Source of the DNA: an uncultured Phycisphaera sp.
Lineage (GTDB): Bacteria; Planctomycetota; Phycisphaerae; UBA1845
DNA length: 64,000 nt
Assembly: GCA_964486335.1 (NCBI GenBank)
Contig: CAZAMB010000005.1
Coordinates: forward strand, 100,008-164,007
Direction: 5' to 3'
Shown here: piece by piece, positions 29,425-62,421 of the stretch
How the letters are laid out: every line of letters starts with the position of its first letter
Numbering within the stretch: the stretch's first letter is position 1
Notes under the pieces: generated by a model
Database searches by the model: none
What the model saw: only the letters and a program-made list of their open reading frames with translations
What the model was told of the DNA's origin: nothing
Made by a program: the position numbers and the translations under genes

Positions 29425-29976
29425 TCAAACGGATTCGTTCTTGCGAACACCGAATGCGAATCGCAGCCGCGGCGGTCGGAGCCAGCCTGCCTGGGACGCC
29501 CCGGAAAGAAACAGGAATCCAACGCCGATGCCGATCAAGGACAATGGTGTGGTCCAAAGTGACGTCGGGTCATCGAACAACCAGCAACTGGGGTTCGCGG
29601 GGTCATAAAGAACCGTGGCAACGCGGTCCTCGGCAACGTTCTTCCAACGAACGAAACCCTTGCTGCGGTAGTTATGCCTTGAGAAGCGGCTTTGATGAAC
29701 GATCCTGCGGTGGCCGGCGGTGAAAATGACGGTTCGGTAGGCTCGACGACAGAATCGAACTTTTTGATGCCAAGGCTCGATGACTTCGTCGGAAGATCGG
29801 AGAATGTGGTCCATATAGGTAATTATGGCTTCGGTCCGGTATCCGAAACCACACAGTCTTGACGTGAGATACAGCCGGTACACTCCATAGGAAGCGACAA
29901 CCGCAGCCAGGACCAGATAGTAGCGTTGCAGCGGACCTGTGAGAGTCAGGTCCAGTTTCCTGCGTTTGGCTTTCAT
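29425..29976 (-). CDS. hypothetical membrane protein (DUF3592-like)
   Basis: 183 aa, two TM segments flanking a beta-rich domain. Weak resemblance only. Confidence 0.5.
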   Translation of the reverse strand: MKAKRRKLDLTLTGPLQRYYLVLAAVVASYGVYRLYLTSRLCGFGYRTEAIITYMDHILRSSDEVIEPWHQKVRFCRRAYRTVIFTAGHRRIVHQSRFSRHNYRSKGFVRWKNVAEDRVATVLYDPANPSCWLFDDPTSLWTTPLSLIGIGVGFLFLSGASQAGWLRPPRLRFAFGVRKNESV

Positions 29977-30132
29977 GAAGTAATCCTACGATTCCTGCAC
30001 TGATCAGCGTGCGGATTCGACACCGTTCTTCTCGGACGCGGCGCTTGGCGTGCATCGATCCTCTGCTCAGGATCGACGTGAACCGTGCGGAGTGGTAGGT
30101 TTCCGGGAAGCGCTCGACGACGAAAAAGCATT

Positions 30133-30139
30133 AAGGAGG
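30133..30139 (+). promoter_or_regulatory. Shine-Dalgarno aaggagg for the Top6A-like gene
   Basis: aaggaggaaccATG, spacing 5 nt to the ATG at 30144. Confidence 0.6.
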
Positions 30140-30143
30140 AACC

Positions 30144-31274
30144 ATGGCAGCGAGAACGGGAACCGGGAAGTCAACGACCAAGCGAAACGGAGCAGCCGAC
30201 GTTCGACTCGAAGCAATGGCAAGGGCCGTCGCGGACATGGCGTTTCGCAAGAAGGACCCTGAATTGTTCATTCCGGCTCGCTTGCTGAGCAATGTCGCGT
30301 TCAACGAAAAGACGCGGCACATCGAGATGGGCGACAACAAGCAGTCGCGGAGCTTCTTCAACTACGGTCAGGCGAAGCGGTTCATGCAGACGATGCTGGT
30401 GGCGAGCAAGTGCAAGGAACTGATCGAGCGCGGGAAGACGGCCAGCATTCGTCAGATCTACTACCTGTCGAAGCACACGATCAAAGGGACGAACGAGAAG
30501 ACTTTTGACGATCAGGCGGAGTCGGACCCGATCATCGAAGATGTCGAGGTCGCGATCGACACACTCCGCGAGGAATTGCACGTCTTCGCGAGCAATCGCG
30601 GCAATCTTGTCGGGCCGGTGACGCTGGTCGATGCGGGGAACACGCTGGACTGCACGGCGATGGGATCGGCGGGTTACGCGGTGCCGAGCATCTGCGAGCC
30701 GGACGTGATCCAGTTCAAGAAGTGCAATGCGAAGTTCATCCTGCACGTCGAAAAGGACACGGTGTGGCGGCGGTTCCATGAGGATCGGTTCTGGGACAAG
30801 CACCAATGCATCGTTTCGCACGGCGGCGGACAGCCCGCGCGCGGCATGCGCCGGCTGCTACGGCGGATGCACGAGGAACTCAAGTTACCGGTATTCGTGC
30901 TGCTCGATAACGATCCTTGGGGGTACTACATTTACTCGGTCATCAAGCACGGCTCGATCAATCTGGCGTATGAGTCGAGGCGGATGGCGATCCCGGACGC
31001 GAAGTTCATCGGCGTTTCGAGCTTTGACTACGACCGCTGCGAGATGAACGACGACGTGAAGATCGAGCTCGACGCGACGGACATCAAGCGTGCCAAACAG
31101 ATCGCGGCCTATCCGTGGTTCGAGAAGAAGCGGGAGTGGCAGCGGGAGTTCAAGAAGATGCTGGCCAACGGGTTCAAGATGGAGGTTGAAGCGATGATCT
31201 CCAAAGATCTTGAATACCTGACGGGCGAGTACGTGCCGATGAAGCTGAAGGACAAGAAGCAGTGGCTGGATTAG
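30144..31274 (+). CDS. Spo11/DNA topoisomerase VI subunit A (Top6A) homolog
   Basis: 376 aa with all three family hallmarks: 5Y-CAP motif ASIRQIYYLSKH (R-x-IYY with catalytic Tyr); Toprim glutamate ILHVEKDTVW; Toprim DxD VLLDNDPWGYYIYSV (DxDPxGxxI). Confidence 0.8.
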   Translation: MAARTGTGKSTTKRNGAADVRLEAMARAVADMAFRKKDPELFIPARLLSNVAFNEKTRHIEMGDNKQSRSFFNYGQAKRFMQTMLVASKCKELIERGKTASIRQIYYLSKHTIKGTNEKTFDDQAESDPIIEDVEVAIDTLREELHVFASNRGNLVGPVTLVDAGNTLDCTAMGSAGYAVPSICEPDVIQFKKCNAKFILHVEKDTVWRRFHEDRFWDKHQCIVSHGGGQPARGMRRLLRRMHEELKLPVFVLLDNDPWGYYIYSVIKHGSINLAYESRRMAIPDAKFIGVSSFDYDRCEMNDDVKIELDATDIKRAKQIAAYPWFEKKREWQREFKKMLANGFKMEVEAMISKDLEYLTGEYVPMKLKDKKQWLD

Positions 31275-31321: not shown

Positions 31322-32680
31322 TCAGCTTTCGCGCGATGGTCTCGTTGGCGAACTTGTTTCGGAGTGCGCTGTCCCTTCTCCAATCATTTTTTCCGCGATT
31401 CCGCGAGTAAGCTTGCGAAGGTCGATCCCGAGAACGGACTCGATCGTCGCCAGCGATTCGGAGAGCATTCTGGCCCGACTCAGCGCGGCCCCGGCAATCG
31501 CCCGGCCATCGCCTCCGTCGATGACGGTTACGTCACCCAGCTCCACCGTGGACACCGTCTTGCAGAGTTCGCCGACGACGCCCGGCAGCATTTCGGCAAG
31601 AAGGACGGTTAGTGCTTCCGGGTGTTCGTGAATGGCTGCGCCGATGCACTCAATCGCCGCGGCGCGGGCCTTGCCTTCTTCGAGGATCATCGCGGCCGCG
31701 CCTTCGGCCTTCGCCTTGGCCGTATCACGATCGGCGTTGGCTTGTTTAACCTGCGTGGCAATGAGTCGAGCCTCCTCCGCCTGCGCGGCGGCTTCCTGCG
31801 CTTGGGCTTCCTTCATGGCGGCTTCGCGAGCCAGTTCGGCCTGTCGCATGCGAAGGGCGTTGTTGGCTTCGGCGATGGACTTTTCGGCGCTGAGCCGCGC
31901 CGCTTCGGCCGTTTGATGTCCTTTGGCTTCAGCGGATCGCGCCTCGGCATCGCGCTCCGCGCGAGCCCTGCGCGCCTGAGCGTCGGCCTCGGCTTCCTTA
32001 ATGTCCGCTTCTGATTTGCGGGCTGCCTCAAACTGGCGCGCATTGGCACGAACTTCGGCGGACGCTTTTCGAGCAATGGACTCAAGGTATTGCTCATCGT
32101 CATGCACATTCTGAATATTCACGCTATCGATCACCATGCCGAGCTTACGGAAATCGTCGTTGACTTCGTTCATGACGGTGGCGACGAACTTGTCTCGGTC
32201 TTCGACAATTTCCTCGGGCGTCATCTTGCCGATCACCGCGCGAAGGCCTCCTTCGAGCGTTTCACGTGAAACACGCTCCAGCTCCACCTGGGGCTGACCA
32301 AGAAATCGCTCGATCGCGCTGCAGCGAATTTCCGGATCAGAGGAGACCTTGACATTGGCGACGCCGGTTACCGTGATCGGAATCATCTTGCCGCCGCCGG
32401 ATTGGGCCTTGACTTCTAGGCCGACCTGCATGTTGCGCAGGCTGAGCATCGCTACCTTCTCGATGATTGGTACGACGACGGTGCGTCCGCCGATCAACGT
32501 GCGGTAGCCGACGTTGTTCGACGCGCGTCGCCCACTGATGACCAGCAATTCACTGGGATTCCCGACGACTGTGAATTTGGCCACAAGCGTCAACAAGGCA
32601 ATGATCAAGAGAAGCACGCCCATCCCGATCAAGATGCCGGTTGCGGCGTCGCTTGTCTGTGCGAGAATCGTGGTGCTCAT
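31322..32680 (-). CDS. flotillin-like SPFH/band-7 protein
   Basis: 452 aa, N-terminal TM, SPFH domain, long Ala/Glu/Lys-rich coiled-coil (AEAKGHQTAEAARLSAEKSIAEANNALRMRQAELAREAAMKEAQAQEAAAQAEEARLIATQ). Confidence 0.85.
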   Translation of the reverse strand: MSTTILAQTSDAATGILIGMGVLLLIIALLTLVAKFTVVGNPSELLVISGRRASNNVGYRTLIGGRTVVVPIIEKVAMLSLRNMQVGLEVKAQSGGGKMIPITVTGVANVKVSSDPEIRCSAIERFLGQPQVELERVSRETLEGGLRAVIGKMTPEEIVEDRDKFVATVMNEVNDDFRKLGMVIDSVNIQNVHDDEQYLESIARKASAEVRANARQFEAARKSEADIKEAEADAQARRARAERDAEARSAEAKGHQTAEAARLSAEKSIAEANNALRMRQAELAREAAMKEAQAQEAAAQAEEARLIATQVKQANADRDTAKAKAEGAAAMILEEGKARAAAIECIGAAIHEHPEALTVLLAEMLPGVVGELCKTVSTVELGDVTVIDGGDGRAIAGAALSRARMLSESLATIESVLGIDLRKLTRGIAEKMIGEGTAHSETSSPTRPSRES

Positions 32681-37305: not shown

Positions 37306-38175
37306 TTACGATCCAAACAGAACGTACCGCTGGTTCGGCTGGGCAAACCCGGCGAACTCACGGCTCACAAAGTTAAACGAAGGATCATCCCATTCGTCCG
37401 AGTAGTGATAAAGGTATGTCCGCTTGCGCACCGCTTCAGGCAGCGTTCGCAAGTCCTTCAAGGATGCGTGGATGGGTTCGAGCGAATCTTCAAGCTGGAC
37501 ATCGTGGAAAATGATGCAAGCGCGGTCCATCCGTCCGCCGAACCCGGCTCGGTCGAACCGCGTGTCTCCTGAGTAGATGGCCAGAGAGCCGGTCGATGCG
37601 TCGCGCATCGACACGCCAAAACTGGGCCAATCGAACTGACGCTCCACGCGAATGTGATCGGTGGGGAATAGACCCAGCTCAAAACGCTCCATCATCGTCA
37701 ACGGACGTTCTTTGTCGTTGACGTCAAGCGGCTTCGGCGCAAAGTAATCTTCCAGTGAAGCCTGCCGGCCGTTGAGCGAACCGAGACCGCCCCGAAGCGA
37801 ATGCTCCCAAAGCGACCGAATCAGCTCAGCCGATCCGAACAACTCAGGGCGACGCGTTTCAGCGCAGCGAGCGAAGCGGATGATGGATGCCCATTCCTCG
37901 AGTCCGCCAATATGGTCGGCGTGCAAGTGGGTAATGATGACGCCGCGAAGTGCAGAATAACAGATGTTTCCGCCGCTACCGAGATAGGAAAACTCCGGCA
38001 TGTCCTTTAACCTATGCAGAGCGAGCGGCCCGGTTGCGCCGAAGTCGATGAGCAGGGCGTCGTCAGGTCGATCCTGCTTGTCGGGACCGGATGCCCATGC
38101 TTCAATCAGCGCGCTGGATTGCAGATTGCGTTTCGCGAAGGCGGAACCAACGCCGAGAAACGTGAGCGTAAGCAC
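37306..38175 (-). CDS. MBL-fold metallo-hydrolase
   Basis: HxHxDH motif ITHLHADHIGGL and downstream His/Asp ligands. Confidence 0.85.
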   Translation of the reverse strand: MLTLTFLGVGSAFAKRNLQSSALIEAWASGPDKQDRPDDALLIDFGATGPLALHRLKDMPEFSYLGSGGNICYSALRGVIITHLHADHIGGLEEWASIIRFARCAETRRPELFGSAELIRSLWEHSLRGGLGSLNGRQASLEDYFAPKPLDVNDKERPLTMMERFELGLFPTDHIRVERQFDWPSFGVSMRDASTGSLAIYSGDTRFDRAGFGGRMDRACIIFHDVQLEDSLEPIHASLKDLRTLPEAVRKRTYLYHYSDEWDDPSFNFVSREFAGFAQPNQRYVLFGS

Positions 38176-42309: not shown

Positions 42310-42381
42310 GCGGGTGTAGCTCAGTGGTAGAGCGTCACGTTGCCAACGTGAATGTCGAGGGTTCGAGCCCCTTCACCCGCT
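42310..42381 (+). tRNA. tRNA-Gly (anticodon GCC)
   Basis: GCGGGTGTAGCTCAGTGGTAGAGCGTCACGTTGCCAACGTGAATGTCGAGGGTTCGAGCCCCTTCACCCGCT. Acceptor GCGGGTG/CACCCGC, anticodon loop TTGCCAA; no encoded CCA. Confidence 0.9.
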
Positions 42382-47447: not shown

Positions 47448-48604
47448 GACCTGACTCCTTGGTTTAGGGACAAAGTGGAACCGTAAGATTCCCCGGCGGC
47501 TGAATTCTCGAGTTTCAATTGGCGTGCGCGCGCCAGCGCTTGGCACGCTGAACTGATGTCAATTGGGTTGTGATCGGCGTTGATCAGAAAGGCGATGTTT
47601 GCCCGTGCAGGTCTTTGAACCGAAAGCAGTACCGTTTGGACCCCCATACCCCTAAGCCGACCGGTCATTCTCCTTGCTTCGCCTGACGACCGAAACGACA
47701 ATATCTGCACAGGGAAGAGTCCCGGAGATGGCGTGAATCCTGCCGATCGTGTTCCGGCACGAAATCGTCGTACATTGGAGAGGAGCTGCGATCGTCGTGA
47801 GTTGCCGATGCGCTCGTTGGCCGTCAGCGCGTTCGTGGCAGCCCTGATGGACGCCTGGGAAGGCGGACTGCAATGAACTCGAGTCTCGCTGCGCGTTGCA
47901 AACTGCTCGACAATGTCACCGCGACTCGACAGAGCGGCCACCGGCGCTCCGAATCCCTTGGCCAGGGAACTGATCAAGACCAATTCCTTCGCGCGAACGC
48001 CCCACCACTGGGAGCTTCCGCCTCCGCCTAGCCCATACGGCATTGTTCGCGTCGGTCGCGCGCCAAGAACGCCAAGCGCTTGAGTGTCATCTACGACAAC
48101 AAGACCCTTCACGGCTCGCATCTGACGAAGATAGCTTGTAAGAGGTGCAACCCGTCCGCATCGCATACAGGAACCATCAACGACAACCACCGGACGTGAT
48201 GCAGGCCCGCCAGCATCCTGAAGTGATCGACGCAATGACGAAGGGCAATAGTGCCGAAACGTCTGGACAGACGCGCCGCGCGCCGCCGCCCGTTCCAGTC
48301 CCCAGCGTCCGATGGGATAAAGTCCGCTATCCATGAAAAACCGTGCCCCTTCGTCGGCGAGCATGCCGAGGAAGTCCCAAAACAAGTGTAACGTCGAAGT
48401 TCCAAGCAAAGCCGCTTCACAGCCTTGCAGGTCGGCCAACAATTGGGCGACCCGCTTCGCCTCAGCTGACTCATCAAGTGCCGCAGGTCGGCCGGTCGTC
48501 AACTGCTCCCACGATCCCAGCGCCGAACTCGGGTGCCGCATGCCCAGATACTGGGCCGAGGTAAAGTCAAGCACTGGATGATTTCCGTCAACGACCTCTG
48601 CCAC
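47444..48604 (-). CDS. alpha-oxoamine synthase (BioF/KBL)-like class I/II PLP-dependent aminotransferase, divergent
   Basis: 386 aa, SLAKGFGAP matches the S-x-x-K PLP-lysine motif of the AONS/KBL family. Overall pattern of fold-type I enzyme. Confidence 0.65.
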   Translation of the reverse strand: MAEVVDGNHPVLDFTSAQYLGMRHPSSALGSWEQLTTGRPAALDESAEAKRVAQLLADLQGCEAALLGTSTLHLFWDFLGMLADEGARFFMDSGLYPIGRWGLERAAARGASVQTFRHYCPSSLRRSLQDAGGPASRPVVVVDGSCMRCGRVAPLTSYLRQMRAVKGLVVVDDTQALGVLGARPTRTMPYGLGGGGSSQWWGVRAKELVLISSLAKGFGAPVAALSSRGDIVEQFATRSETRVHCSPPSQASIRAATNALTANERIGNSRRSQLLSNVRRFRAGTRSAGFTPSPGLFPVQILSFRSSGEARRMTGRLRGMGVQTVLLSVQRPARANIAFLINADHNPIDISSACQALARARQLKLENSAAGESYGSTLSLNQGVRS

Positions 48605-50261
48605 CCGTCAATTGCGATTGCAGCCGTTGGCTTAATAGCACTGAAGGCATGGTCGCATTCACCATTCCACTCACCGGCTGAGCTGTCAGATCAACACCCG
48701 TAGCCGCGCGGTAAGCATGGAGGTAACCCTGAATTTCCGGCTTCCAATATCGAGCCCATGTTCGAGCGTGTTCCTGGTCTGTTAGGACATTCCAGTTTCC
48801 ATACCGGATCGAGAGCAGAATCCGTTCTCCGAGGACGCCCAAATCGCGAAAATGGGTGACCGTTACGTCGCTCCAACCCTGAACTCGTTTCATCGCGTCC
48901 ACGCGGCCCATCCACGGTTCCGCATAGGGCACCATGATCCGAGTGCCGAGGAATTCGCGCATTTCGGGTCGGGACAACAACCACTGCTGCATCATCATCT
49001 CGACTCGCGCTGTCCACGGCAGATCCCCGAATTGATTGTGCGCCCCTTGGGCAAGCAGCAAATGGACTTCCTTTAGCGCGTTGAGAAGAGGGAACCCGTC
49101 GGAAATCACGGTCGTGTCCGAGTCTTCCTGAAAAAACACGGAGCTGCGATACAAAAGATCGTGAAATGCTTCGAGAAACTTTGAACGGTTGTCGGCCGGA
49201 CGCATGGTCGAAACGGCCTTGCCCGCGAGCGCCAGTCCGTAGTGGTGGCTATACTCATAGGCTCGGCGAGGAACCGTGAGGCGATGGACTTCGTCCTGGA
49301 TGTACCCCCAAAGAAAGTTGTTGAGTGGCCTCAGCGGATCGATTTCCAACTCGGCCAATGGGTCGCGACCTGCGCCGCGCCGTTTGTTCTGGAATCGAAG
49401 GCTGATGGCGTTCAATGTTTGCGCCAACATCCCTTCTTCGTGCCAATACGACCAGATCAGTTCCAGCAGGCATGGACAAGAAGATTTCGCGCAGAGGATT
49501 TTCCCGTCACAGAAGGCCGAGGTAGCCGTCTGTTCTCGCCAATTCTCACCGAAGGCAGCGGTTAGAATCGTGTTCAAGTAATTGATATCCTTCGTTCGCA
49601 AGTAACTCGCCAGCTTGTCGCTAATGTCCTTCAGGGTGCCGCCCGGCAATGGGAAGTCATCCTCCAGACGTTTGACTTCAGATCCGGGGTCATCCTTTTC
49701 ACCCCATCCTTCGGTCTCGGCGCATGCGCATGGATCGCAATTACTCTTTTCACCTGCTTCTTGTTGTTTCTGAGCAGATGCGCCTTCGCGTGTTGTCGAT
49801 TCCGGATCGTCGGGTTTACGATAACAGGGATCAGGCTTTTTCTTTTCGGGGTCCAGAAACTCATCAGGATGCATTCCCTTTTGAAACGGCCCGCATGTGC
49901 AGCCGCAGCGGATGAGCAAAAACGTCTCCGTGGCCGTCTTCAAAAGGTCGTAGGCGTCCATGCCGTGGATGCAGGGTTCCTTGCTCAAACTTTCTCGCAG
50001 CCTTCGTTCCGGGCAGCAGTCGGGATCTTTGGTGTCTTTGTCGCAGAGCACTCGATCAATAAACTTCGCGTATTCCGAGAACGATGTCCGTTCCGAAGCA
50101 GTCCGAATCCACATCCATAACGGATACGTGTCGTCCCGTTTGAGCGGGGATCTCGAAAGCGAAAAGGTGCCGGACGCCGGCTTGGCAAAATCGCCAGAAA
50201 CACTTACCTTGACTCCCTTCGCCAGCTCTTTACCTTCAACAATAATCTTTCCTTCAGCCAT
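48588..50261 (-). CDS. hypothetical Cys-rich protein (557 aa), no recognisable family
   Basis: Strong RBS aaggag 7 nt upstream. Multiple CC/CxC clusters (DPDCCPE, IRCGCTCGP, CDPCACAE, CAKSSCPCL). Local GC is visibly lower than the flanking core genes. Confidence 0.6.
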   Translation of the reverse strand: MAEGKIIVEGKELAKGVKVSVSGDFAKPASGTFSLSRSPLKRDDTYPLWMWIRTASERTSFSEYAKFIDRVLCDKDTKDPDCCPERRLRESLSKEPCIHGMDAYDLLKTATETFLLIRCGCTCGPFQKGMHPDEFLDPEKKKPDPCYRKPDDPESTTREGASAQKQQEAGEKSNCDPCACAETEGWGEKDDPGSEVKRLEDDFPLPGGTLKDISDKLASYLRTKDINYLNTILTAAFGENWREQTATSAFCDGKILCAKSSCPCLLELIWSYWHEEGMLAQTLNAISLRFQNKRRGAGRDPLAELEIDPLRPLNNFLWGYIQDEVHRLTVPRRAYEYSHHYGLALAGKAVSTMRPADNRSKFLEAFHDLLYRSSVFFQEDSDTTVISDGFPLLNALKEVHLLLAQGAHNQFGDLPWTARVEMMMQQWLLSRPEMREFLGTRIMVPYAEPWMGRVDAMKRVQGWSDVTVTHFRDLGVLGERILLSIRYGNWNVLTDQEHARTWARYWKPEIQGYLHAYRAATGVDLTAQPVSGMVNATMPSVLLSQRLQSQLTGGRGR

Positions 50262-50285: not shown

Positions 50286-51614
50286 CTATGAGGCCCGTGC
50301 GATTGTTTTCTGTGTTCGACCGACGAAAACCCTGCTCCGCGAACAACGGACACAAGCGCCAAACGTGCTTCGAAGCGCCCAATGACTGAGCAATCCACTC
50401 ACGAGGCGACTCTCTTCAACCGGATTGAGGACGCCGTACGCTTTTGCTTGTCCCAATACGGCGAACACAAGCGACTCCGGAGCGGCCCGCAACTGTTCTG
50501 GAAATCGTCGCCAGGTCTGAAAGAGTCTCATTAGGCGATGTGGTTGCCGCTCCTCGACACCGAGGACTTCCCCCAGAGACAATCCCCTGAGAGACTTCGG
50601 TCGATGATGTGTCAACAACGCCACAAAACCAGGAATGCTTGCCTGTAACGCGTTGAATAGCGCGAAACGTCTTGGGTCAAGCTGCGTTGGCGGATAAAAC
50701 GCGTCCCACATCCTCGCGAAATGTTCCCATTGCGGATGTGGATAGAGCGCTTGTCCGACCGCACAACTGAGCTTGACCCTGATCCACGGGCTTGGGTGCG
50801 GATCGTCAAGGTTGATTCGAAAAACGAATCCACGCGGCAGACTGACTACACTCATCAATCCCATGGTGGACGTGATGCCCAACTTCGCCACGGACCAGAA
50901 GTCGGCAACAACCTCGGAAATCCACCGCTCCCAGGCCAGCCACGCAAACGCTTCTGCGCTCCCTTTCTTCCGCATTCCCAGAAGAATTGGCCGGAAGGAC
51001 GGAACCAGTTTCAGCAGTTCCGCTGCCTGATGACCGACCTCGTGGACCAAAGACGATGCGATTCCGCTGCCTACCATTCTCTCCCGCGGCACGCGGATAA
51101 TGGCAACGGGATTGCGCCCGCCCGTGGGCATCCGCGTTCGCGCCCGCCGTATCGCCGCGCCGGGTCCGCGGTCCAGGTAACAAATCACCGGCGGTTCCGA
51201 GTAGTAGCCGCCACCAAGGTGCAATGCATCGGCGGCAAACGCATCCAGTCCGGATAGCCAGATTCCCGTTTCATGTTCGCTGCGTTGAGTGATTGCATCC
51301 GCAAACAGATCAAGATCCGAAAGGACGGCGTTGAACCGCAATCGGAGGAGTACGAATCGCCGCTGCGCTTCCTCGGCGGAGGACAACCGCCCATTCGAAC
51401 CCTCAAGCCACGCCAGAAATGCAACGACTTGTTCCCGCAAATTGCGTCGCCCTTGAAGCAAGTACCCGTCGATGGCTCTTTGCGCGGTTGAGGAAATCGC
51501 CGCGGCGGTTACCGAAGTGATTTGCAGCGCGAATGGCTTCACGATAGCCAGTCGTGTCAGCAGGGCACGGGCTTCCTGCGCAAGAAAACAAGTTGTGTTG
51601 GAACGCATGGACAC
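50286..51614 (-). CDS. hypothetical protein with HExxH zinc-metallopeptidase-like motif (442 aa)
   Basis: LVHEVGHQAAEL motif. GTG/ATG start with gggag RBS. No family recognised. Confidence 0.6.
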   Translation of the reverse strand: MSMRSNTTCFLAQEARALLTRLAIVKPFALQITSVTAAAISSTAQRAIDGYLLQGRRNLREQVVAFLAWLEGSNGRLSSAEEAQRRFVLLRLRFNAVLSDLDLFADAITQRSEHETGIWLSGLDAFAADALHLGGGYYSEPPVICYLDRGPGAAIRRARTRMPTGGRNPVAIIRVPRERMVGSGIASSLVHEVGHQAAELLKLVPSFRPILLGMRKKGSAEAFAWLAWERWISEVVADFWSVAKLGITSTMGLMSVVSLPRGFVFRINLDDPHPSPWIRVKLSCAVGQALYPHPQWEHFARMWDAFYPPTQLDPRRFALFNALQASIPGFVALLTHHRPKSLRGLSLGEVLGVEERQPHRLMRLFQTWRRFPEQLRAAPESLVFAVLGQAKAYGVLNPVEESRLVSGLLSHWALRSTFGACVRCSRSRVFVGRTQKTIARAS

Positions 51615-51620
51615 GACTTG

Positions 51621-52289
51621 TCAAACTCCCAACAGAATGATGCGCCGACCGCGGCGAATCCAGCGACCGCTCTGCCCCGCACTCGAAGTGCTCGCCAGCC
51701 CAGTGTTCATGAGGCCTGGCGCATGACGTTGAGCCGCGGCGGCCAGGGCCGACTTTGCGACGATTCGGGGATCAGTGGTATGTGGGGATGCGGCGGCGTG
51801 CTGAGCAGCGGCGCCGGCCAAGCGAACGAATCGTCGGGCGATTTCAAATTCCTGATCTTCGCCGCTGAGGCCCTCAAATTCCAAGCCAAACAGCTTGCCG
51901 GCCGCGGATCCGGCGGCACTTCCAAGCGCCGTTCCGACACCGGGGATCGGGATGAGTGACCCCAGGGCGCCTCCGGCAATCGGCAGAACCTTCTTGGCGA
52001 TGCCTTTGAGGATTCCGCCAAGCGGACGGAAAACGCGAGGAGCGATGCGCTTAATCCCCTTCCAGGCGCGCTTGAACAATTTGCCGAGGAATTCATCGAT
52101 TTCCTGGTCGCTCGACAATGTGAGCAGTTCGGAGGCGAAATCAACTTCTTCGTCCTGCGTAAATGGTCCCTCGCCGGTCCCGAAATCTCCAAATTCTTCG
52201 AAGACTTCAAAATCGCTCGTTTCACCGCCGAAACCATCGGTTTCCCCGGTGTCTTCGAAATACGTCTGAGTCTGGTCTATGTCGTGCAT
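51621..52289 (-). CDS. hypothetical protein (222 aa): acidic N-terminus, Gly-rich amphipathic middle, C-terminal GRWIRRGRRIILLGV motif
   Basis: Strong RBS aggag 7 nt upstream. Paralogous to the next gene upstream. Confidence 0.55.
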   Translation of the reverse strand: MHDIDQTQTYFEDTGETDGFGGETSDFEVFEEFGDFGTGEGPFTQDEEVDFASELLTLSSDQEIDEFLGKLFKRAWKGIKRIAPRVFRPLGGILKGIAKKVLPIAGGALGSLIPIPGVGTALGSAAGSAAGKLFGLEFEGLSGEDQEFEIARRFVRLAGAAAQHAAASPHTTDPRIVAKSALAAAAQRHAPGLMNTGLASTSSAGQSGRWIRRGRRIILLGV

Positions 52290-52301
52290 GTGTTTCTCCT
52301 C

Positions 52302-53291
52302 TTAAATGCCAAGTGCTACGATGGTGTGTCCCGTACGCATCCACCTGCCGTTACCGGGCCGATGAATGGCATAACTGATCCTTGATTCATCCTCGGTTTG
52401 GTCTTCCTCAGGTGCGACAGGAGGCTTGTTGCTTATGCCGAAACCTTGGTCGATCGAATCCTGAATGACGCTTCCACAATGTTGGGCACATGCCGCACAA
52501 TCGCACTCGATTGGCTCCACGGGTTCCGGCGCGACACCGGCGGCCGAACGTGCCCCACCATTGCTCGATGACGACGGAAAAGAAGATGGCATGGACGTTT
52601 GCGCAGGCCGTGTTCCGCTGTCGGTCGGAGGAAATTCCGGCCCATGGGATGGCTTTCCTGTGCGATGCCGCCATCTCCGTTTGCGTCGAAGCTGCTCGCG
52701 AAGAACGCGGAGTGCTGTTCTAATGGCAGGCAAAGCAGCATTTCTCGCGTGTTGTGTACGAGACAGCCGTCTCGCCAACCGACCTGCCAATCGTCCAAAC
52801 CGAACAGCTCGACGTGCTCTCTCAAGGTCCTCTTCATCCGTTTCGAACCCCTCAAGACTGCCATCAATGAACTCCCGAAATTGAGCGTTCAAAGACTCTG
52901 ACGGATCGCCCATGGGCGACGACGCGATGAAGGGTACCCGGCGAATGCCATCAATTGCGCTCTGTACTTGCGGCGTGATGAACTTGGCCAGACTATTCGT
53001 CGTTGAAGTGAGTGACTCCCCGCATTTGCCTAATGTCGCGAGCACAGCTCTGGCAATCTCGTTGCCACTGACCGCTCCTAGCAGGTCAATTGCCAGTTCT
53101 TCTTCGTTTTTTTGGCGATCGTACATAGCACAATTCAATTGGATTGGACTCGCGCATGGGTCCGAACTCAGCTGTGAAAGAAAGCAAGTTCCATGCCAGA
53201 AAAACTGGGCCAATAATGGGCATTCTGGCGAAGTGTACTTCGCAACGACTGATGAACGGTGCAATTCAGCGAATCGCGCTTCGCCGATCAT
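52302..53291 (-). CDS. hypothetical protein, paralog of the 222 aa protein; C-terminal GNGRWMRTGHTIVALGI motif
   Basis: Shares an acidic segment (EGFETDEEDLERARRAVRFGRLAG vs EGLSGEDQEFEIARRFVRLAG) and the terminal motif with the downstream gene. Start is either 53291 or the internal Met near 53125. Confidence 0.5.
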   Translation of the reverse strand: MIGEARFAELHRSSVVAKYTSPECPLLAQFFWHGTCFLSQLSSDPCASPIQLNCAMYDRQKNEEELAIDLLGAVSGNEIARAVLATLGKCGESLTSTTNSLAKFITPQVQSAIDGIRRVPFIASSPMGDPSESLNAQFREFIDGSLEGFETDEEDLERARRAVRFGRLAGRLARRLSRTQHARNAALPAIRTALRVLREQLRRKRRWRHRTGKPSHGPEFPPTDSGTRPAQTSMPSSFPSSSSNGGARSAAGVAPEPVEPIECDCAACAQHCGSVIQDSIDQGFGISNKPPVAPEEDQTEDESRISYAIHRPGNGRWMRTGHTIVALGI

Positions 53292-53542
53292 TCTGTTCGC
53301 TGTTGTCCAGTGAACGAAACAGGCCGAGGTGTTATGGGATTCCGTGGCCTGTGGTCAATGGTATTGGATAAGGCAACGAATCACTCGTTTCGAGGTGAAT
53401 CGGACGTTTAAAGTGACGAATCCTGACTTGATCCTACTCGATTGCTCCAATGCTGGGATGAATACTCATTTAACAGATCGCAAATGGCTCTTGGAAAGAA
53501 ACGTGGAAGGGGTTTCCGCATTCTCCGTAACTCTTTGGTTTT

Positions 53543-53613
53543 GCGCGGTTTAGAACTCGCTGCGTTCATGTTGCCTACGTAAATGTCGAGGGTTCGAGTT
53601 CCTTCACCCGCTT
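53543..53613 (+). pseudogene. decayed copy of tRNA-Gly(GCC), with similarity to the 3' flank of the intact tRNA-Gly continuing to about 53720
   Basis: 3' 45 nt gttgcctacgtaaatgtcgagggttcgagttccttcacccgct align to the intact gene with 4 mismatches. The 5' half (D-arm) is scrambled. A further ~110 nt downstream align at about 75-80% to 42382..42490. Confidence 0.6.
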
Positions 53614-53656
53614 TGTTTGACGCGCCGTGCCAGCGAGTGACATCGCGGTCCAACTC

Positions 53657-53863
53657 TTGACCCCAGCGCGAGTTACGACGACCGATTCTTGCCTTTCCCA
53701 GGTTTACATTTCATGGTCGCGTTTCGAGCTGTCTAAGCGGGCGGGCGTCCCGTACAGCGGAATCCACCGCTTTATCAGCTACGACCGCGACCTGACCCTG
53801 ACAACGGCGTCACGGCTGGCCGACGTGCTGGGGCTGGAATTGCGCCCTGCAAAAGGAAAGTAG
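53657..53863 (+). CDS. small XRE/Cro-type helix-turn-helix protein (possible excisionase/regulator)
   Basis: LSKRAGVPYSGIHRFISYDRDLTLTTASRLADVLGLEL matches the HTH_XRE pattern. Immediately upstream of the integrase. Start codon uncertain (candidate TTG at 53657). Confidence 0.4.
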   Translation: MTPARVTTTDSCLSQVYISWSRFELSKRAGVPYSGIHRFISYDRDLTLTTASRLADVLGLELRPAKGK

Positions 53864-53870
53864 GTGCATC

Positions 53871-55340
53871 ATGCCGAGAGTATTCCGGCAAAAATACACG
53901 CAACCGACGGCAGACGGAAAACGAAAAACGCGACAAAGCGCTAAGTGGTACGTCGAGTACCGCGACGCCCAAGGCATTCGGCGTCGGGTTCCGGGGTACA
54001 CCGACAAGGGCGCGACCCAACAGCTCGCGGCGGAGTTGGAACGAAACGCGGAGCGACAGCTCGCGGGTCTGGTCGATGCCTTTGCCGATCATCGAAAGCG
54101 CCCTTTGCGGGAACACCTGAATGATTGGCACGGCGCCTTGATCGCACGCGGCGCGTCGCGCGATTATGCCGACTTGGTCAAGAGCCGAGCGACCAAGGCG
54201 CTGACAGGTTGCGGATTCGTTTTCCTTGCCGACGTATCGGCATCCGACCTGCAAGCCTATCTGAGCAGGTTGCGAAGCGACGGACTGAGCATTCAAACGG
54301 TCAATTTCTACCTGCAAGCGGTCAAGCAGTTTTTCCGCTGGATGGTTGCTGACCGACGAATGCCCGACAACCCGGTCGCGTACCTGCGCGGGGGGAATGT
54401 CCGAACGGATCGTCGCCACGATCGACGCGCACTCGACACTGATGAACTGCGATCGCTACTCGACGCTACGAAGAATGGACCGGAACGGTTTGGCATGAAG
54501 CCTGATGCGCGGGCAATGCTTTATCAGCTTGCGGTTGAAACTGGTCTGCGGGCCACCGAACTGCGAACGCTGACTTGGGATTGTCTGGACTTGGAAGGCG
54601 ACCTGCCGACGGTGACGGTCAAGGCCGGTTATAGCAAACACCGGCGAACCGATACCCTTCCTTTAAAGCCGTCTACGACGCAAACGCTGGCCCGCTGGAG
54701 CAACGAACTCGGCAACGTGGACCCAACGGCACGCCTTTTCAACATGCCGCCCAAGGCCGCGAAAATGCTCCGAGCTGATCTGGCCGACGCTGGCTTACCG
54801 TATGCCGATGCTGATGGGCGCGTGGCCGATTTTCATTCCTTGCGGCACACTTACATTTCCAATCTGGCCCGTGGCGGTGTTCATCCAAAGATCGCCCAAC
54901 AGCTTGCCCGGCATTCGACCATTACGCTGACGATGGATCGCTATTCGCACACGGTTTTGGGCGAGCTATCAGACGCACTGTCGGCCCTGCCGGAGCTGGA
55001 CGCCACGCCATTCGAGCAAGAATCGGTGAGAGCGACCGGCACCTGCGGCAACCCCCAAAAATGCTTACCGATTTCCTTACCGAAATCCTTACCGAAACGC
55101 GGTGCGCGGCGAGAGTTGTCCCATTCATCGGCGTGCAATGATCCAACGCAAACCGCGAAATTCGACCGGCAAGAAAATCCTATGAATATAGGTATTTCCT
55201 GCGCTTCCACGCGTGACGACGCGGGTGTGTTCGTGGAACAATCCCGACTGCGCCCGGCGGGATTCGAACCTGCGACCCCCGGTTTAGGAAACCGGTGCTC
55301 TATCCAACTGAGCTACGAGCGCAACAATCGGCTAGTATAA
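53871..55340 (+). CDS. tyrosine-type site-specific integrase (phage integrase family)
   Basis: N-terminal SAM-like core-binding region and C-terminal catalytic box HSLRHTYIS (HxxR) ... LTMDRYSH (catalytic Tyr). The open frame continues ~130 aa past the Tyr, through the antisense tRNA-Arg, to the first stop at 55340. Confidence 0.85.
   Translation: MPRVFRQKYTQPTADGKRKTRQSAKWYVEYRDAQGIRRRVPGYTDKGATQQLAAELERNAERQLAGLVDAFADHRKRPLREHLNDWHGALIARGASRDYADLVKSRATKALTGCGFVFLADVSASDLQAYLSRLRSDGLSIQTVNFYLQAVKQFFRWMVADRRMPDNPVAYLRGGNVRTDRRHDRRALDTDELRSLLDATKNGPERFGMKPDARAMLYQLAVETGLRATELRTLTWDCLDLEGDLPTVTVKAGYSKHRRTDTLPLKPSTTQTLARWSNELGNVDPTARLFNMPPKAAKMLRADLADAGLPYADADGRVADFHSLRHTYISNLARGGVHPKIAQQLARHSTITLTMDRYSHTVLGELSDALSALPELDATPFEQESVRATGTCGNPQKCLPISLPKSLPKRGARRELSHSSACNDPTQTAKFDRQENPMNIGISCASTRDDAGVFVEQSRLRPAGFEPATPGLGNRCSIQLSYERNNRLV
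55249..55322 (-). tRNA. tRNA-Arg (anticodon CCT)
   Basis: Minus strand GCGCTCGTAGCTCAGTTGGATAGAGCACCGGTTTCCTAAACCGGGGGTCGCAGGTTCGAATCCCGCCGGGCGCA. Anticodon stem CCGGT/ACCGG with loop TTCCTAA, T-loop TTCGAAT, acceptor with one G-U pair. Confidence 0.8.
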
Positions 55341-57936: not shown

Positions 57937-60288
57937 CTATAGTCCGCCCTGCCGCACGCGGAAATGTGCCACAGATGACCAGGTGTTGGGCGATCCGCCG
58001 GCCAAAAAGCACCACGGACCAACCGCGGAACTGCTTCCGAACGCCGGTGCGCCAATGGCGAGACAATCGTTAGGGGCCGAAAACGGAACTTGAAACCGGA
58101 TTGAATGTCCGCCCGACTCCACGACCACCCCGGCGCCGTTGCCGCGTGCCTGCGGTCTCGGCGGATCATAGGAATAAAGAAACGGCAGGCCCGCCCCACC
58201 ATCGGACGGTGAACCGTCGACTTCAAGCGTTCCGGCGGCGACATAATCACAATAAACCGTCGCGGAACCGCAACCGACGTTTACCGTCACCGTGACGAAG
58301 TCTCCGGCCGTTACTTCCGCCGGAGAGACGCTTATGCTCCCGCAGCCCGACTGGTAGGGAGCTACATCGAGTTCGTCGCATACGGGGTCAAGCTGGGCGA
58401 TCACCTCCACCGGTTCTTCCAGTTCACCCACGAGTGTTCGACTCCCATTCGCGTCTTCCAAATAAACGCTCACCGTGATCGTGTCGCGATCGCCGGCGCG
58501 AGCATTGGGATCGGATGAATAGACGATGGTCGTCAAGTGGCTTTCGACTTCGTCGCCTTCGGTGATGCCGTCGCCGAGGTGGCCGTGATCACCCGACGTG
58601 GACCAAACGTATAGTAAGGTGCCGCTTGGCGGGGATGACAGCGTCGCCGTGAAGTTCCGCGTCTCGCCGACTTCGACGCGCGTCGATTCGGGCGTGACGT
58701 GGACCGTGCGCGGCGCGGCCACGATTTCCCAACTGTCAGCCCAGCTCGACGACTGATTGTCCTTAACCACCGCGCCCAGATCGAGCGCCGCCATAGCCAA
58801 TTGAATGGCTCTCAGGAAAGTCGCACTCCTTGCGACGGCGGCAGCATTGGATTGCAGCGTTGCCAATGTGGATTGCGTGCTCAACGCCGACGGCCAGAAC
58901 TTTTGCAGCTGAATGACGATGTTGGAGGTAAAGATCTCATCGTCGGCCATGTTCCTGATGGCGACCGTGACAAAGTCAGCCGCCTGTTTGTTGGTGCGCG
59001 GTACGGCCACGCCGATTTCGAGAAGCACCGGATTGAGCGTTTCGACAAAGGCGGCCAGCGCGCCCGCCGAGGCCGATTCCATCGCGCTCAGCGGACCGCC
59101 AATGGCAACGGTCTCAAGAATCGGAACAAAGAAATCGAGCAGCACGAGCTTCCATTGCAGCGAATCGGCCTCCGCGCTCCACGCCGGCACAAAATTGGCG
59201 AACTGAGGATCCGTTGTAATGCCCGGCGTGCCGACAAAGTCGAACGAAGAACCGATCACGATCGCCTTGTAATAGGTCTTCGCATTTCCGGTTTCGTGCG
59301 TGAGTTCGATTGGCGGCAGCGTAATCGGCGCCCAGGAAGCTGAGCCGCTGAGCACTGCGCTGATGGAACTGATCAGGCTCAGCCGATAGGTCGTCGGGAC
59401 CTCCATTTCGTCCACCCGCTCGGGAGGCGTGATGTCGCGACGTGTGCCCGCGTCGTTTTCGGTGGCCGTTCGATAGACATACAGCTTGCCGCGGCGGCGA
59501 AAGTTATTGATCGCCACGATGCCTTCGCCGTCGGGGTTGTGCGCGATCTGAACGCCGCTTTGTCGAGTGCTTCCGTCGGGCGTGATCAGCAAGAGTGGGC
59601 TTACACCCGTCGATTGCATGTGCGGTCCGAGTTTGAGTTGGGCTGAGTCGTCCGCCACGGTCGTGCTGTCGCGCGGCGGTTCGGGGAACTTCGTTGCTTC
59701 ATGCGCTGCGTCGAGAGCTGCCAGCACCGTCTCGTCGCCATCTTGAAGAGCCCCCGCGTCGGCGCCCAGCGCCGCCTCGATGGCGTCCGTCAGGTCCGCC
59801 ACTGCCTGTGTCTGATCAAGCAGGTCGAGCACGTTCGATAGCGAATCGGGAAAGATCGTCCAGCCCCCATTGGCGAAGTAAAGCAGCGCCAGCGCCGTTG
59901 TTCTTGAGTTAATGACGTTGGGCACCGCGTGATCGGGATTGGCAAACCCCATCAGGATCAACCGTCCGGTTCCATCCACGACCTGCACGAACGAGGGCGT
60001 ACGTAACCGGACACTCAGCGAAAATGCCCCATCCGCCGACGGCGTCGCCGTCGAATCCGATGACCGTACGCGCAGCGTCGTCGGATCGATGGTCATGCCA
60101 ACCGGCAGCGAGACCGTGCCAACCAGCATCTTCGGCTCGTCCAAGACGATCGAGGGAGGCCGCTCGATGGTCGGCTCGTCGCCACCGCCGTTGCCATTGC
60201 CGCCTCCGCCGCCCGGCGCTGCCGGGCAACCGGGAATCAACGCCAACATCATCAGCACCAACCACCCGCAGCGGCAAGACGCATTCAT
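57937..60288 (-). CDS. large hypothetical lipoprotein (783 aa)
   Basis: Lipoprotein signal MNASCRCGWLVLMMLALIPGC followed by a Gly-rich linker. No family recognised. Confidence 0.6.
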   Translation of the reverse strand: MNASCRCGWLVLMMLALIPGCPAAPGGGGGNGNGGGDEPTIERPPSIVLDEPKMLVGTVSLPVGMTIDPTTLRVRSSDSTATPSADGAFSLSVRLRTPSFVQVVDGTGRLILMGFANPDHAVPNVINSRTTALALLYFANGGWTIFPDSLSNVLDLLDQTQAVADLTDAIEAALGADAGALQDGDETVLAALDAAHEATKFPEPPRDSTTVADDSAQLKLGPHMQSTGVSPLLLITPDGSTRQSGVQIAHNPDGEGIVAINNFRRRGKLYVYRTATENDAGTRRDITPPERVDEMEVPTTYRLSLISSISAVLSGSASWAPITLPPIELTHETGNAKTYYKAIVIGSSFDFVGTPGITTDPQFANFVPAWSAEADSLQWKLVLLDFFVPILETVAIGGPLSAMESASAGALAAFVETLNPVLLEIGVAVPRTNKQAADFVTVAIRNMADDEIFTSNIVIQLQKFWPSALSTQSTLATLQSNAAAVARSATFLRAIQLAMAALDLGAVVKDNQSSSWADSWEIVAAPRTVHVTPESTRVEVGETRNFTATLSSPPSGTLLYVWSTSGDHGHLGDGITEGDEVESHLTTIVYSSDPNARAGDRDTITVSVYLEDANGSRTLVGELEEPVEVIAQLDPVCDELDVAPYQSGCGSISVSPAEVTAGDFVTVTVNVGCGSATVYCDYVAAGTLEVDGSPSDGGAGLPFLYSYDPPRPQARGNGAGVVVESGGHSIRFQVPFSAPNDCLAIGAPAFGSSSAVGPWCFLAGGSPNTWSSVAHFRVRQGGL

Positions 60289-60519: not shown

Positions 60520-61257
60520 ATGGACCGAACACGACAAATGCCGCCGGCCAACCACGACGACACCTGGCGGCTCTTTCGCATTATGGCCGAATTCGTTGAT
60601 GGGTTTGACACGATGGCCCGCGTTCCGCCCGCCGTTTCGGTGTTCGGTTCAGCCCGGACGCCCGCCGACGATCCTTATTATGCCCAGGCTGAGCAGCTGG
60701 GCGGAGAACTCGCGCGGAGCGGGTTTGCGGTGATGACGGGCGGCGGTCCGGGAATCATGGAAGCTGCCAACAAGGGTGCACAGGAGGCCGGTGGAGTAAG
60801 CATTGGACTGAATATCTTCCTGCCGAAGGAGCAGAAGGCCAACTCCTTCCAAACGGTTTCGCTCGATTTTCGTCACTTTTTCTGCCGCAAGGTGATGTTC
60901 GTCAAGTACGCCGTGGCCTTTGTCTGCTTTCCCGGCGGGTACGGAACGCTCGACGAGTTTTTTGAATCGATGACGCTGATCCAGACGGGTAAGACACAGC
61001 GATTCCCCGTGATCCTCATCGGATCGGAGTACTGGACGCCGCTGCTGAGTTGGATGCGATCAAGCCTGGTCGATCGACATTCCTACGTCGATCGGTCGGA
61101 TCTCGATCTGTGCGTCGTGACCGACGACGTGGCCGAGGCCGCCAAGATCATTGCAAGGTCTCATCAACGTCGGCCTGCGGAATCAGCAACACCGCGTCGT
61201 CCGGAGGAAACCACCACGCCGGAAGGAACATTTCAGGGCCGACAACCCTTGCGATGA
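60520..61257 (+). CDS. LOG-family (TIGR00730) nucleotide-binding protein / cytokinin riboside 5'-monophosphate phosphoribohydrolase-like
   Basis: VSVFGSAR..MTGGGPGIMEAANKGA..FPGGYGTLDE is the LOG-family Rossmann signature. Start at the internal Met MDRTRQM. Confidence 0.85.
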   Translation: MDRTRQMPPANHDDTWRLFRIMAEFVDGFDTMARVPPAVSVFGSARTPADDPYYAQAEQLGGELARSGFAVMTGGGPGIMEAANKGAQEAGGVSIGLNIFLPKEQKANSFQTVSLDFRHFFCRKVMFVKYAVAFVCFPGGYGTLDEFFESMTLIQTGKTQRFPVILIGSEYWTPLLSWMRSSLVDRHSYVDRSDLDLCVVTDDVAEAAKIIARSHQRRPAESATPRRPEETTTPEGTFQGRQPLR

Positions 61258-61307
61258 ACAGGATACTGGTTTCCCGGCATTTCTCGTCAGATTTGGTCTT
61301 TCTATCG

Positions 61308-62228
61308 TCAATCGAAATTGCAGATCGTGCGTATGGTCGTCACGAAGTCGCGGCAGGCGGCGGCGACGCACGATTTCCAGTCGGCGGAGGAGCTACGGTA
61401 TTTCGGTTCGTTGTGTGCGAAAATGACGCTCCGCGAAGCCGCAACGACGGCACCGGTTCCGTCGGGCTTGAAGCATTTGGCGACTTCATCAGCTGTCCGG
61501 CCTTGGGCGCCGAATCCGGGCACAAGGAAGATGCAATTGGGCATGATATCTCGCAAGCGGACGGTGGAGGGCAAGTCACGCGGCGAGACGACAGCTCCGA
61601 TGCAACTGTAGCCGCTCAGGCCGACGAGTCCGTCGGCACCGGCCCACTCCTGGACCATTTGTGCCACGCTGTGACATACCATGGAGCCATCCGCGAGTGT
61701 CAGCCCTTGAACGCGGGACGCGGATTCATTGCTGGTCTGAACGAGCACGAACAGGCCGCGACCGGTCGCCTGCGCCGTCTCGACGAACGGACCGACGCCG
61801 TCCCAGCCAAAATAGGGATTCACCGTGACGGCATCAGCGACCGCGGGATCGTCCGCCGCACCTCCCAATGTCGCCTTGGCGTATTGGGCCGACGTGTGGC
61901 CGATGTCAGCGCGTTTGACGTCGCCGATGACAAGGAGCCCGGCGCAATGCGAAACGGCGATCAATTCGTGATAAGCGGTGATGCCGCCCGGTCCGTAGGG
62001 TTCAAAAAAGGCGATGTTGATTTTTATGGCAGGGACCAATGGCGCAACGGCCTCGATGACGCCTCGTCCGAACGCAGTGATTGCGTCGGTCGCGCTGTTG
62101 AGCGAGCGAAGCGATTCAGGCAGCCGCTCGACGAGCGGATCGAGTCCGACACAAACGGGAGCATGCTTGTCCCGAACAGCGTTCGCCAGCCTGTCGCCAA
62201 AACTCATCAGCATTCCATCCTTCCCCAT
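61308..62228 (-). CDS. pyrF: orotidine 5'-phosphate decarboxylase (type 2)
   Basis: VCVGLDP..IKINIAFFE..VIGDVKRADIG, type-2 PyrF motifs. Real start probably MSFGDRL (about 62207). Confidence 0.85.
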   Translation of the reverse strand: MGKDGMLMSFGDRLANAVRDKHAPVCVGLDPLVERLPESLRSLNSATDAITAFGRGVIEAVAPLVPAIKINIAFFEPYGPGGITAYHELIAVSHCAGLLVIGDVKRADIGHTSAQYAKATLGGAADDPAVADAVTVNPYFGWDGVGPFVETAQATGRGLFVLVQTSNESASRVQGLTLADGSMVCHSVAQMVQEWAGADGLVGLSGYSCIGAVVSPRDLPSTVRLRDIMPNCIFLVPGFGAQGRTADEVAKCFKPDGTGAVVAASRSVIFAHNEPKYRSSSADWKSCVAAACRDFVTTIRTICNFD

Positions 62229-62421
62229 GCCGTGGGCTCCAAGAAGCCGCCGCCATTACTTTGCACAATGCCGCCGGCATGCGACCGTCGGATCGCGCCG
62301 GGAGGTCGCGTGACTAACCCGCGAAGCGCGCGGCTCGCAGCCTCATCTGGATCATAAGCCTGACGAGTTCCGCTCACAACGATGATCGGTAACTTGACAT
62401 GACCCAAGCCGACAACGAACA

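Follow-up and report, generated by a model that had tools for sequence, protein, structure and literature searches.

Within a 64,000-nucleotide stretch of DNA from an uncultured Phycisphaera sp. (contig CAZAMB010000005.1; the whole stretch is hereafter the window), we identified a full-length gene for subunit A of DNA topoisomerase VI (Topo VI). This gene, top6A, is an ATG-initiated open reading frame (ORF) of 376 amino acids (aa) at window positions 30144..31274 of the forward strand. In Topo VI, Top6A dimers cleave the G-segment; the T-segment is captured by dimers of Top6B, which also harness ATP hydrolysis for strand passage. A preliminary description of the locus had presented the gene as an acquired singleton, standing alone and with no partner. 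Our results favor a different reading. The window very probably encodes the ordinary A subunit of a conventional A2B2 Topo VI, inherited vertically within Phycisphaerae, with top6B next to dnaA on a different contig. As a routine member of the Topo VI set already published for Planctomycetota, the gene is in that sense already known.

The identity of top6A is supported by Pfam, NCBIfam, and Protein Data Bank matches, by invariant catalytic residues, and by the ratio of nonsynonymous to synonymous substitution rates (dN/dS). The protein passed the NCBIfam equivalog model NF003333 with 535.1 bits against a cutoff of 465, aligning to profile positions 14-366 of 367. Pfam placed TP6A_N at residues 78-147 (3.5e-18), Topo_VI_alpha at residues 153-194 (4e-5), and TOP6A-Spo11_Toprim at residues 198-368 (5e-58, full profile 1-170). 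The layout comprises a 5Y-CAP/winged-helix domain with Tyr107, a small beta domain, and a Toprim domain with E203 and D255-x-D257. The closest solved structure was S. shibatae Top6A (2zbk_A, E = 2e-76, residues 34-371), and further matches were obtained to M. jannaschii (1d3y_A, 8e-51) and M. mazei (2q2e_A, 1e-46) Top6A. Archaeal and bacterial Top6A proteins such as these have the same three full-length domains, the catalytic Tyr in an R-x-x-Y/F-Y context, and the Toprim Glu and DxD. The IRQIYY motif (residues 102-107) aligned to the catalytic sites 'irdlYY' of S. shibatae and 'lreaYY' of M. jannaschii; the codons of R103-Q-I-Y106-Y107, containing the conserved Arg and catalytic Tyr of the 5Y-CAP, occupy 30450..30464 (+). 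Roles for R99 and Y103 are known in the M. jannaschii protein (PMC7671362). R103, Y107, E203, D255, and D257 were invariant in 44 members of the Top6A family. The catalytic motifs, including the R-x-IYY context with Y106 and Y107, are thus as intact as the preliminary description had claimed.

The protein also retained the N-terminal CAP segment. The S. shibatae alignment begins at query residue 34 and chain residue 32, the M. mazei alignment begins at residue 8, and residues 34-75 showed 66% identity to Top6A proteins with an adjacent B gene. The T2BI box, the A-A dimer interface over the catalytic Tyr, reads K345-M-E-V-E-A350-M (codons 31176..31196, +; motif KMEVEA at residues 345-350). Separate box types have been published for Topo VI, Mini-A (xWELDAL), and Topo VIII (RVELNAM) (PMC7671362). 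KMEVEAM fits the Topo VI type, R/K-x-E-x-x-A/S-x, and neither of the others. Archaeal and bacterial Top6A proteins have the same box type and the same Top6B-contacting N-terminal segment. The window protein itself shows no difference from them; the difference lies in the position of its gene, which is not beside top6B.

These features bear on an alternative in which top6B has been lost and Top6A acts by itself, or with an unrecognizable partner, as a Spo11-like or Mini-A-like cleaver. Stand-alone A-like proteins do exist in bacteria and phages (PMC7671362). Mini-A, a stand-alone phage and prophage protein of 5Y-CAP and Toprim (Takahashi et al. 2019, PMC7671362), likewise has no B gene nearby and conserves the Tyr and the E/DxD residues. 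However, Mini-A is without the N-terminal CAP segment that contacts Top6B, has the xWELDAL box, and occurs in a viral or proviral context (PMC7671362). Topo VIII, too, is without this N-terminal part of the CAP, to which the transducer helix of Top6B binds. The window protein, at 376 aa, differs from Mini-A in its full N-terminus with TP6A_N, its Topo VI-type box, and its housekeeping neighbors, and the similarity of residues 34-75 to B-linked Top6A proteins also argues against loss of the partner. Eukaryotic Spo11 is homologous in fold and has the catalytic residues in common; its partner is a degenerate Top6B-like subunit, and the breaks that it makes are programmed. The window protein instead has its best matches among the Top6A proteins of archaea and bacteria, and its candidate partner is a canonical Top6B with intact motifs (below). 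Wadjet JetD/MksG is a Toprim nuclease encoded in a JetABC/MksBEF operon. All strong Pfam and NCBIfam matches of the window protein were to Top6A models, Tyr107 is present, and no SMC- or kleisin-like genes were found among the window neighbors covered by the Pfam scans. The protein is not of the JetD/MksG type, as had been stated.

No Top6B is encoded in the window, in agreement with the preliminary description. Pfam found no GHKL or Topo-VIb domain in the window ORFs (all those of at least 435 aa and most of 300-434 aa), and six-frame tblastn of the 64 kb with two lineage-matched Top6B queries gave best E values of 0.74 and 2.0. Four large ORFs without a Pfam family (783, 557, 442, and 435 aa) were not Top6B-like by tblastn. 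There was also no dnaA within the 64-kb window. The missing partner speaks for an orphan Top6A. It is nevertheless weak evidence, because about one-third of the genomes in this clade encode A and B far apart.

To describe linkage across the clade, species-representative genomes were scanned with the Top6B P0224, yielding 80 loci that were classed by tblastn. In 27 of the 80, top6A lay at most 500 bp downstream of top6B, and in 16 it lay 0.5-10 kb downstream. No top6A was found within at least 8 kb of top6B in 19 loci (13 examined on both sides, 6 downstream only), and contig ends or gaps left linkage undeterminable in 18. Among the 62 judgeable genomes, A and B were therefore unlinked in 19 (~31%), directly adjacent in 27, and 0.5-10 kb apart in 16. 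Half of the loci (40 of 80) had a divergent dnaA no more than 1.5 kb upstream of top6B. In L007 (2.67 Mb), for example, a 647-aa Top6B lies directly 5' of a Top6A 84% identical to that of the window, and the pair is divergent, beside dnaA-dnaN-dciA-gyrB. Unlinking of A and B is common in this clade, with top6B as the one that remains at the origin. In much of Phycisphaerae, the usual order, gyrB-dciA-dnaN-dnaA <> top6B(-top6A), puts Topo VI at what is presumed to be the origin of replication.

The relatives of the window's Top6A number in the thousands. The searches returned 8000 candidates at E <= 1e-10 for Top6A and likewise 8000 for Top6B. More than 120 Top6A clusters were among the matches listed; the best 120 were 79-92% identical to the window protein, and the named ones came from metagenome-assembled genomes (MAGs) of Planctomycetota/Phycisphaerae. 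The remark that Topo VI is rare in bacteria holds in general and fails for Phycisphaerae, with its large A and B families. In a neighbor-joining (NJ) tree, the window's Top6A fell into a shallow sub-clade with L009, L010, and L011, and this sub-clade nested among Phycisphaerae lineages with adjacent B and A. The three relatives differ in arrangement. In L009, B is beside dnaA, and 6.2 kb holding five inserted genes separate it from A, whose protein is 88% identical to that of the window; this locus is an intermediate stage of A-B separation. In L010, the closest to the window's Top6A (88% identical), top6A stands alone. L011 also has top6A alone, with nucS upstream, and its Top6A (P0009) is 87% identical. 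Two independent assemblies (L011:9078-9968 and L012:430-1320) have the NucS-family endonuclease gene on the strand of top6A and 32 bp ahead of it.

The tree of Top6B contained a matching sub-clade, made up of L009, L020, L059, L084, L024, L025, L027, L014, L021, L016, and L019. In every member except L009, top6B was stand-alone or its linkage was undeterminable. One of these loci, L027 (CAZYEX010000049.1, with B beside dnaA), comes from the MAG GCA_964646605.1, to which the top6A locus L010 (CAZYEX010000089.1) also belongs. The window's nearest relative therefore has both subunits, unlinked. L010 also carries a homolog of the window's upstream 183-aa ORF at the same spot 5' of top6A (46% identity, E = 2e-38). 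This divergent module of ORF and top6A is common to the window and L010, and its relocation therefore predates their split.

A candidate for the window organism's own Top6B was found among the 90% clusters near the CAZYEX Top6B. This protein, P0287, has 726 aa and is encoded on a contig (L100) from SRR14787580, a run that yielded a contig 100% identical to the window as well. Gene order at this locus is dciA-dnaN-dnaA <> top6B, with a C5 DNA methylase gene next. The tetranucleotide distance between the P0287 contig and the window was 0.116, compared with a within-window mean of 0.118 +/- 0.020 for segments of equal length and 0.131 for the best of 76 other loci. P0287 passed NF003218 (651 bits vs 274) and TIGR01052 (505 vs 381) and matched M. 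mazei Top6B (2q2e_B) at 1e-144. It kept the N-box EAVDNSLDA, the G1 motif DNGPGI, the G2 motif GQQGIGISAA, and the switch-lysine region SEGKEAIAD. Its nearest B relatives are those of the unlinked sub-clade that includes L027. In GCA_975901355.1, the closest to P0287 by B, Top6B again has dnaA nearby, and the 10 kb downstream of it contain no Top6A. We strongly infer that P0287 is the Top6B of the window organism. The preliminary description had proposed to check orphan status by seeking a Top6B elsewhere in the genome with a matching phylogeny; P0287 is very probably such a gene, on a circumstantial link. Together with the ~31% of judgeable genomes that are unlinked and the B gene elsewhere in the MAG of the nearest relative, it undercuts the view of a Top6A with no partner.

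Three other Top6B proteins were tried as the window's own and rejected: P0185 (GCA_005240095.1/SRR6261452), P0250 of L034 (GCA_964494205.1/SRR12822863), and P0172 (SRR19044049/SRR20309470). Each is a further stand-alone or origin-linked Top6B. The gene directly 3' of the P0287 top6B encodes a C5 DNA methyltransferase (PF00145, L100:6993-8429).

The dN/dS of top6A was 0.05-0.09, alike against linked and unlinked relatives; with dS at 1.0-1.9, near saturation, these ratios are approximate, yet far below 1. They indicate strong purifying selection on top6A. At the strain level, top6A was nucleotide-identical (100%) in all five matching Logan contigs, so a comparison of synonymous and nonsynonymous changes is uninformative there. 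Besides the near-saturated dS, several points weigh against the reading we favor. The link between P0287 and the window is circumstantial and without physical linkage. The sample is a metagenome, which could hold a second related Phycisphaerae. Mirror-tree comparison of A and B distances did not discriminate the partner (P0287 r = 0.861, rank 11 of 82, with ~0.86 for many candidates), and no support values accompany the NJ trees. That Topo IV is absent, a point that enters the functional argument below, is taken from the PVC literature and not from this genome. No promoter-like site was found 5' of top6A, sigma-70 consensus scans being weak for this phylum; promoter and terminator scans around the gene gave nothing, where chance alone would yield 0.6 and 2.1 sites. 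The indirect assignment of P0287 leaves some room for a true orphan. Even so, B is encoded elsewhere in the nearest relative that shares the gene module, a matching B of matching composition occurs in the same sample, and purifying selection is the same with and without linkage. On this evidence, the loss of top6B is very unlikely, and a window organism in which Top6A acts with an ordinary, unlinked Top6B is the reading we retain.

The neighborhood of top6A addresses a second alternative, in which the gene was recently acquired by horizontal transfer, for example on a mobile element, and is independent of the host topoisomerases. A Shine-Dalgarno-like AAGGAGG, read from the sequence at 30132..30138 (+), lies 6 nt 5' of the ATG; the start of 30133 given previously falls inside this ribosome-binding site and is not a start codon. 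The gene is monocistronic, because both flanking genes are on the opposite strand. Upstream is a divergent 183-aa ORF (29425..29976, −; gene call on Logan contigs) of unassigned function, with no Pfam match, that is not part of the enzyme. Downstream is an SPFH/Band-7 gene (31322..32680, −; Pfam scan). The strong ribosome-binding site, the single-gene unit, and the opposite-strand flanks had all been described correctly. An acquisition would fit this isolated arrangement, the varying context among relatives with 87-88% identical proteins, and a strain-level indel directly downstream of top6A. However, GC content is flat across top6A (0.58-0.60), with no compositional anomaly. The neighbors are of an ordinary, housekeeping kind: besides the 183-aa ORF and the SPFH/Band-7 protein, Pfam identified a chorismate-binding enzyme, an SH3 protein, a double-FHA protein, and SurE near the gene. 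No integrase, transposase, or tRNA genes were found within ~10 kb; the closest tRNAs are at 19.5 and 42.3 kb of the window, and an integrase is at 53.9 kb. The A tree, moreover, puts top6A inside Phycisphaerae, next to genomes with B in a matching sub-clade. A relocation within the genome of the sub-clade's ancestor accounts better for the variable context, and it is preferred to acquisition because the divergent upstream ORF moved along with top6A. With its nested position, purifying selection, flat GC, and an upstream ORF in common with its nearest relative, the gene does not behave as an acquired singleton, and we consider recent acquisition highly improbable.

A third alternative, that A and B are truly adjacent and that the order in the window results from misassembly or misbinning, was weighed against independent assemblies. 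Such a case was seen in CP070744.1, where 100-N gaps break Top6B. However, the window locus contains no N run. Matching Logan contigs were recovered from SRR14787579 (100% over 10.6 kb) and SRR14787580 (100% over 3.3 kb), and four SRR346462xx runs hold contigs 99.3-99.9% identical to the window. The order SurE - 183-aa ORF - top6A - downstream gene was repeated on five independently assembled contigs from five runs at 99.3-100% identity. An artifact is the least probable of the explanations considered, and we regard it as extremely unlikely.

Under the favored reading of a vertically inherited A subunit with its B at the origin, the A2B2 mechanism would apply here as in published Topo VI. Two Top6A protomers would form the DNA gate. 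Tyr107, with Arg103 and with Mg2+ held by Glu203, Asp255, and Asp257, would make a transient double-strand break. Two Top6B protomers (GHKL ATPase, H2TH, and transducer) would capture a second duplex and drive strand passage. Top6B would be encoded on another contig, at the origin (dciA-dnaN-dnaA <> top6B); top6A, for its part, would have moved together with the small divergent ORF into a housekeeping neighborhood of FHA, SurE, and SPFH proteins. Judging from published knowledge, the enzyme would most likely serve as a dedicated decatenase and relaxase alongside gyrase.

This function is consistent with what has been reported for the phylum. Topo VI has been published in the Planctomycetota families Pirellulaceae, Thermoguttaceae, Lacipirellulaceae, Sedimentisphaeraceae, and Anaerohalosphaeraceae (Allen & Maxwell 2024, PMC11302465). 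The last two belong to Phycisphaerae, the class of the window organism, and the published cases have both subunits as well as gyrase (PMC11302465). PVC-group bacteria with Topo VI lack Topo IV, and a decatenase role was proposed for Topo VI on that basis (PMC11302465). Topo VI has also been described as a preferential decatenase (PMC8837201). The discovery value of the window gene is therefore small, as it encodes a standard subunit in a lineage already reported with Topo VI.

Allen & Maxwell 2024 (PMC11302465) contains no discussion of gene order, and no description of the dnaA-top6B juxtaposition or of graded top6A unlinking was found in the literature searched. A tentative extension is that Topo VI belongs to the core replication factors of Phycisphaerae and is linked to the origin, with top6B kept divergently beside dnaA in at least half of the sampled genomes while top6A has repeatedly drifted away (adjacent, 1-6 kb, unlinked). 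We put this forward as a possibility that is more doubtful than likely. If true, the A and B subunits would be co-regulated in trans, and expression of top6B might be coupled to dnaA and to replication initiation. Far less likely than this origin-linked role is a window organism whose Top6A acts without any B subunit. The juxtaposition and graded unlinking together are a modest comparative-genomics observation and not a new kind of system. The juxtaposition does offer a modest, testable lead on a tie between Topo VI and replication in bacteria reported without Topo IV.

Several observations concern the annotation and assembly of Topo VI genes. Five of the six curated Top6A equivalog models (NF003332-NF003334, NF003336, and NF003337) are named 'DNA topoisomerase IV subunit A', and this name is carried into MAG annotations such as 'MAG: DNA topoisomerase IV subunit A [Phycisphaerae bacterium]'. 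The 'IV' is likely a systematic naming error, through which bacterial Topo VI is hidden and mistaken for ParC. In CP070744.1, Top6B appeared split, with a 490-aa N-terminal part at 2.45 Mb and aa 494-608 beside Top6A at 0.48 Mb. Gene fission was rejected because 100-N scaffold gaps occur at both breaks (L006:7560-7659 and L060:11315-11414). The top6B break in CP070827.1 is likewise at a 100-N gap (L068:11376-11475), and the FHA-SurE...Top6A synteny of CP070744.1 with the window was not used for the same reason. Both sequences are titled 'chromosome', and the gaps cut top6B at ~aa 490-508, leaving the halves ~2 Mb apart in CP070744.1. Faulty scaffolding is the probable cause, or else a break that a repeat induced at the same place in both genomes. 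Scaffold gaps in 'complete' MAG chromosomes can thus mimic split genes. A D12 methyltransferase and a NotI-family restriction enzyme lie between the top6B fragment and top6A of CP070744.1. Restriction-modification genes seem to insert repeatedly 3' of top6B, which is one possible route to unlinking.

Unusual loci were also encountered in the Top6B scan. One MAG holds two different Top6B-Top6A pairs (L057, CAZZFA010000025.1; L094, CAZZFA010000009.1), whose A proteins share 66% and 65% identity with that of the window; the MAG has either two Topo VI paralogs or a contaminated bin. L052 (JANQQE010000021.1, 666 kb), labeled 'Alphaproteobacteria bacterium', has a Phycisphaerae-type dnaA <> top6B-top6A near-identical to L047, L051, and L095, a resemblance that points to a mislabeled bin. 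The sole archaeal match was L093 (CAYITI010000066.1), from Woesearchaeota, with a GC content of 0.30; it has one of the peptide patterns of the query.

Elsewhere in the window, strain-level variation occurs directly 3' of top6A. The SRR346462xx contigs (L002-L005) match the window to 31479 and resume at ~33062 with 88-92% identity. They are without the SPFH/Band-7 gene (31322-32680) and most of the next ORF, a 222-aa membrane protein, and have a 122-aa ORF there instead. The four large ORFs without a Pfam family at E <= 1e-3 are located at 57937..60288 (−, 783 aa), 48588..50261 (−, 557 aa), 50286..51614 (−, 442 aa), and 61050..62357 (+, 435 aa). At 37306..38175 (−), a metallo-beta-lactamase-fold protein matched Pfam Anti-Pycsar_Apyc1 with 92 bits against a cutoff of 50. 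This match is unusual in a chromosomal housekeeping setting, and the protein could simply be a relative of cyclic-nucleotide phosphodiesterases. GC content dips to 0.53-0.54 at 42-45 kb, after tRNA-Gly(GCC) (42310-42381). Another dip (0.54, 52000..54000) lies beside a tyrosine-recombinase ORF of the phage integrase family at 53871..55340 (+), whose 3' end overlaps tRNA-Arg(CCT) (55248..55323, −), and this region may represent an integrated element.

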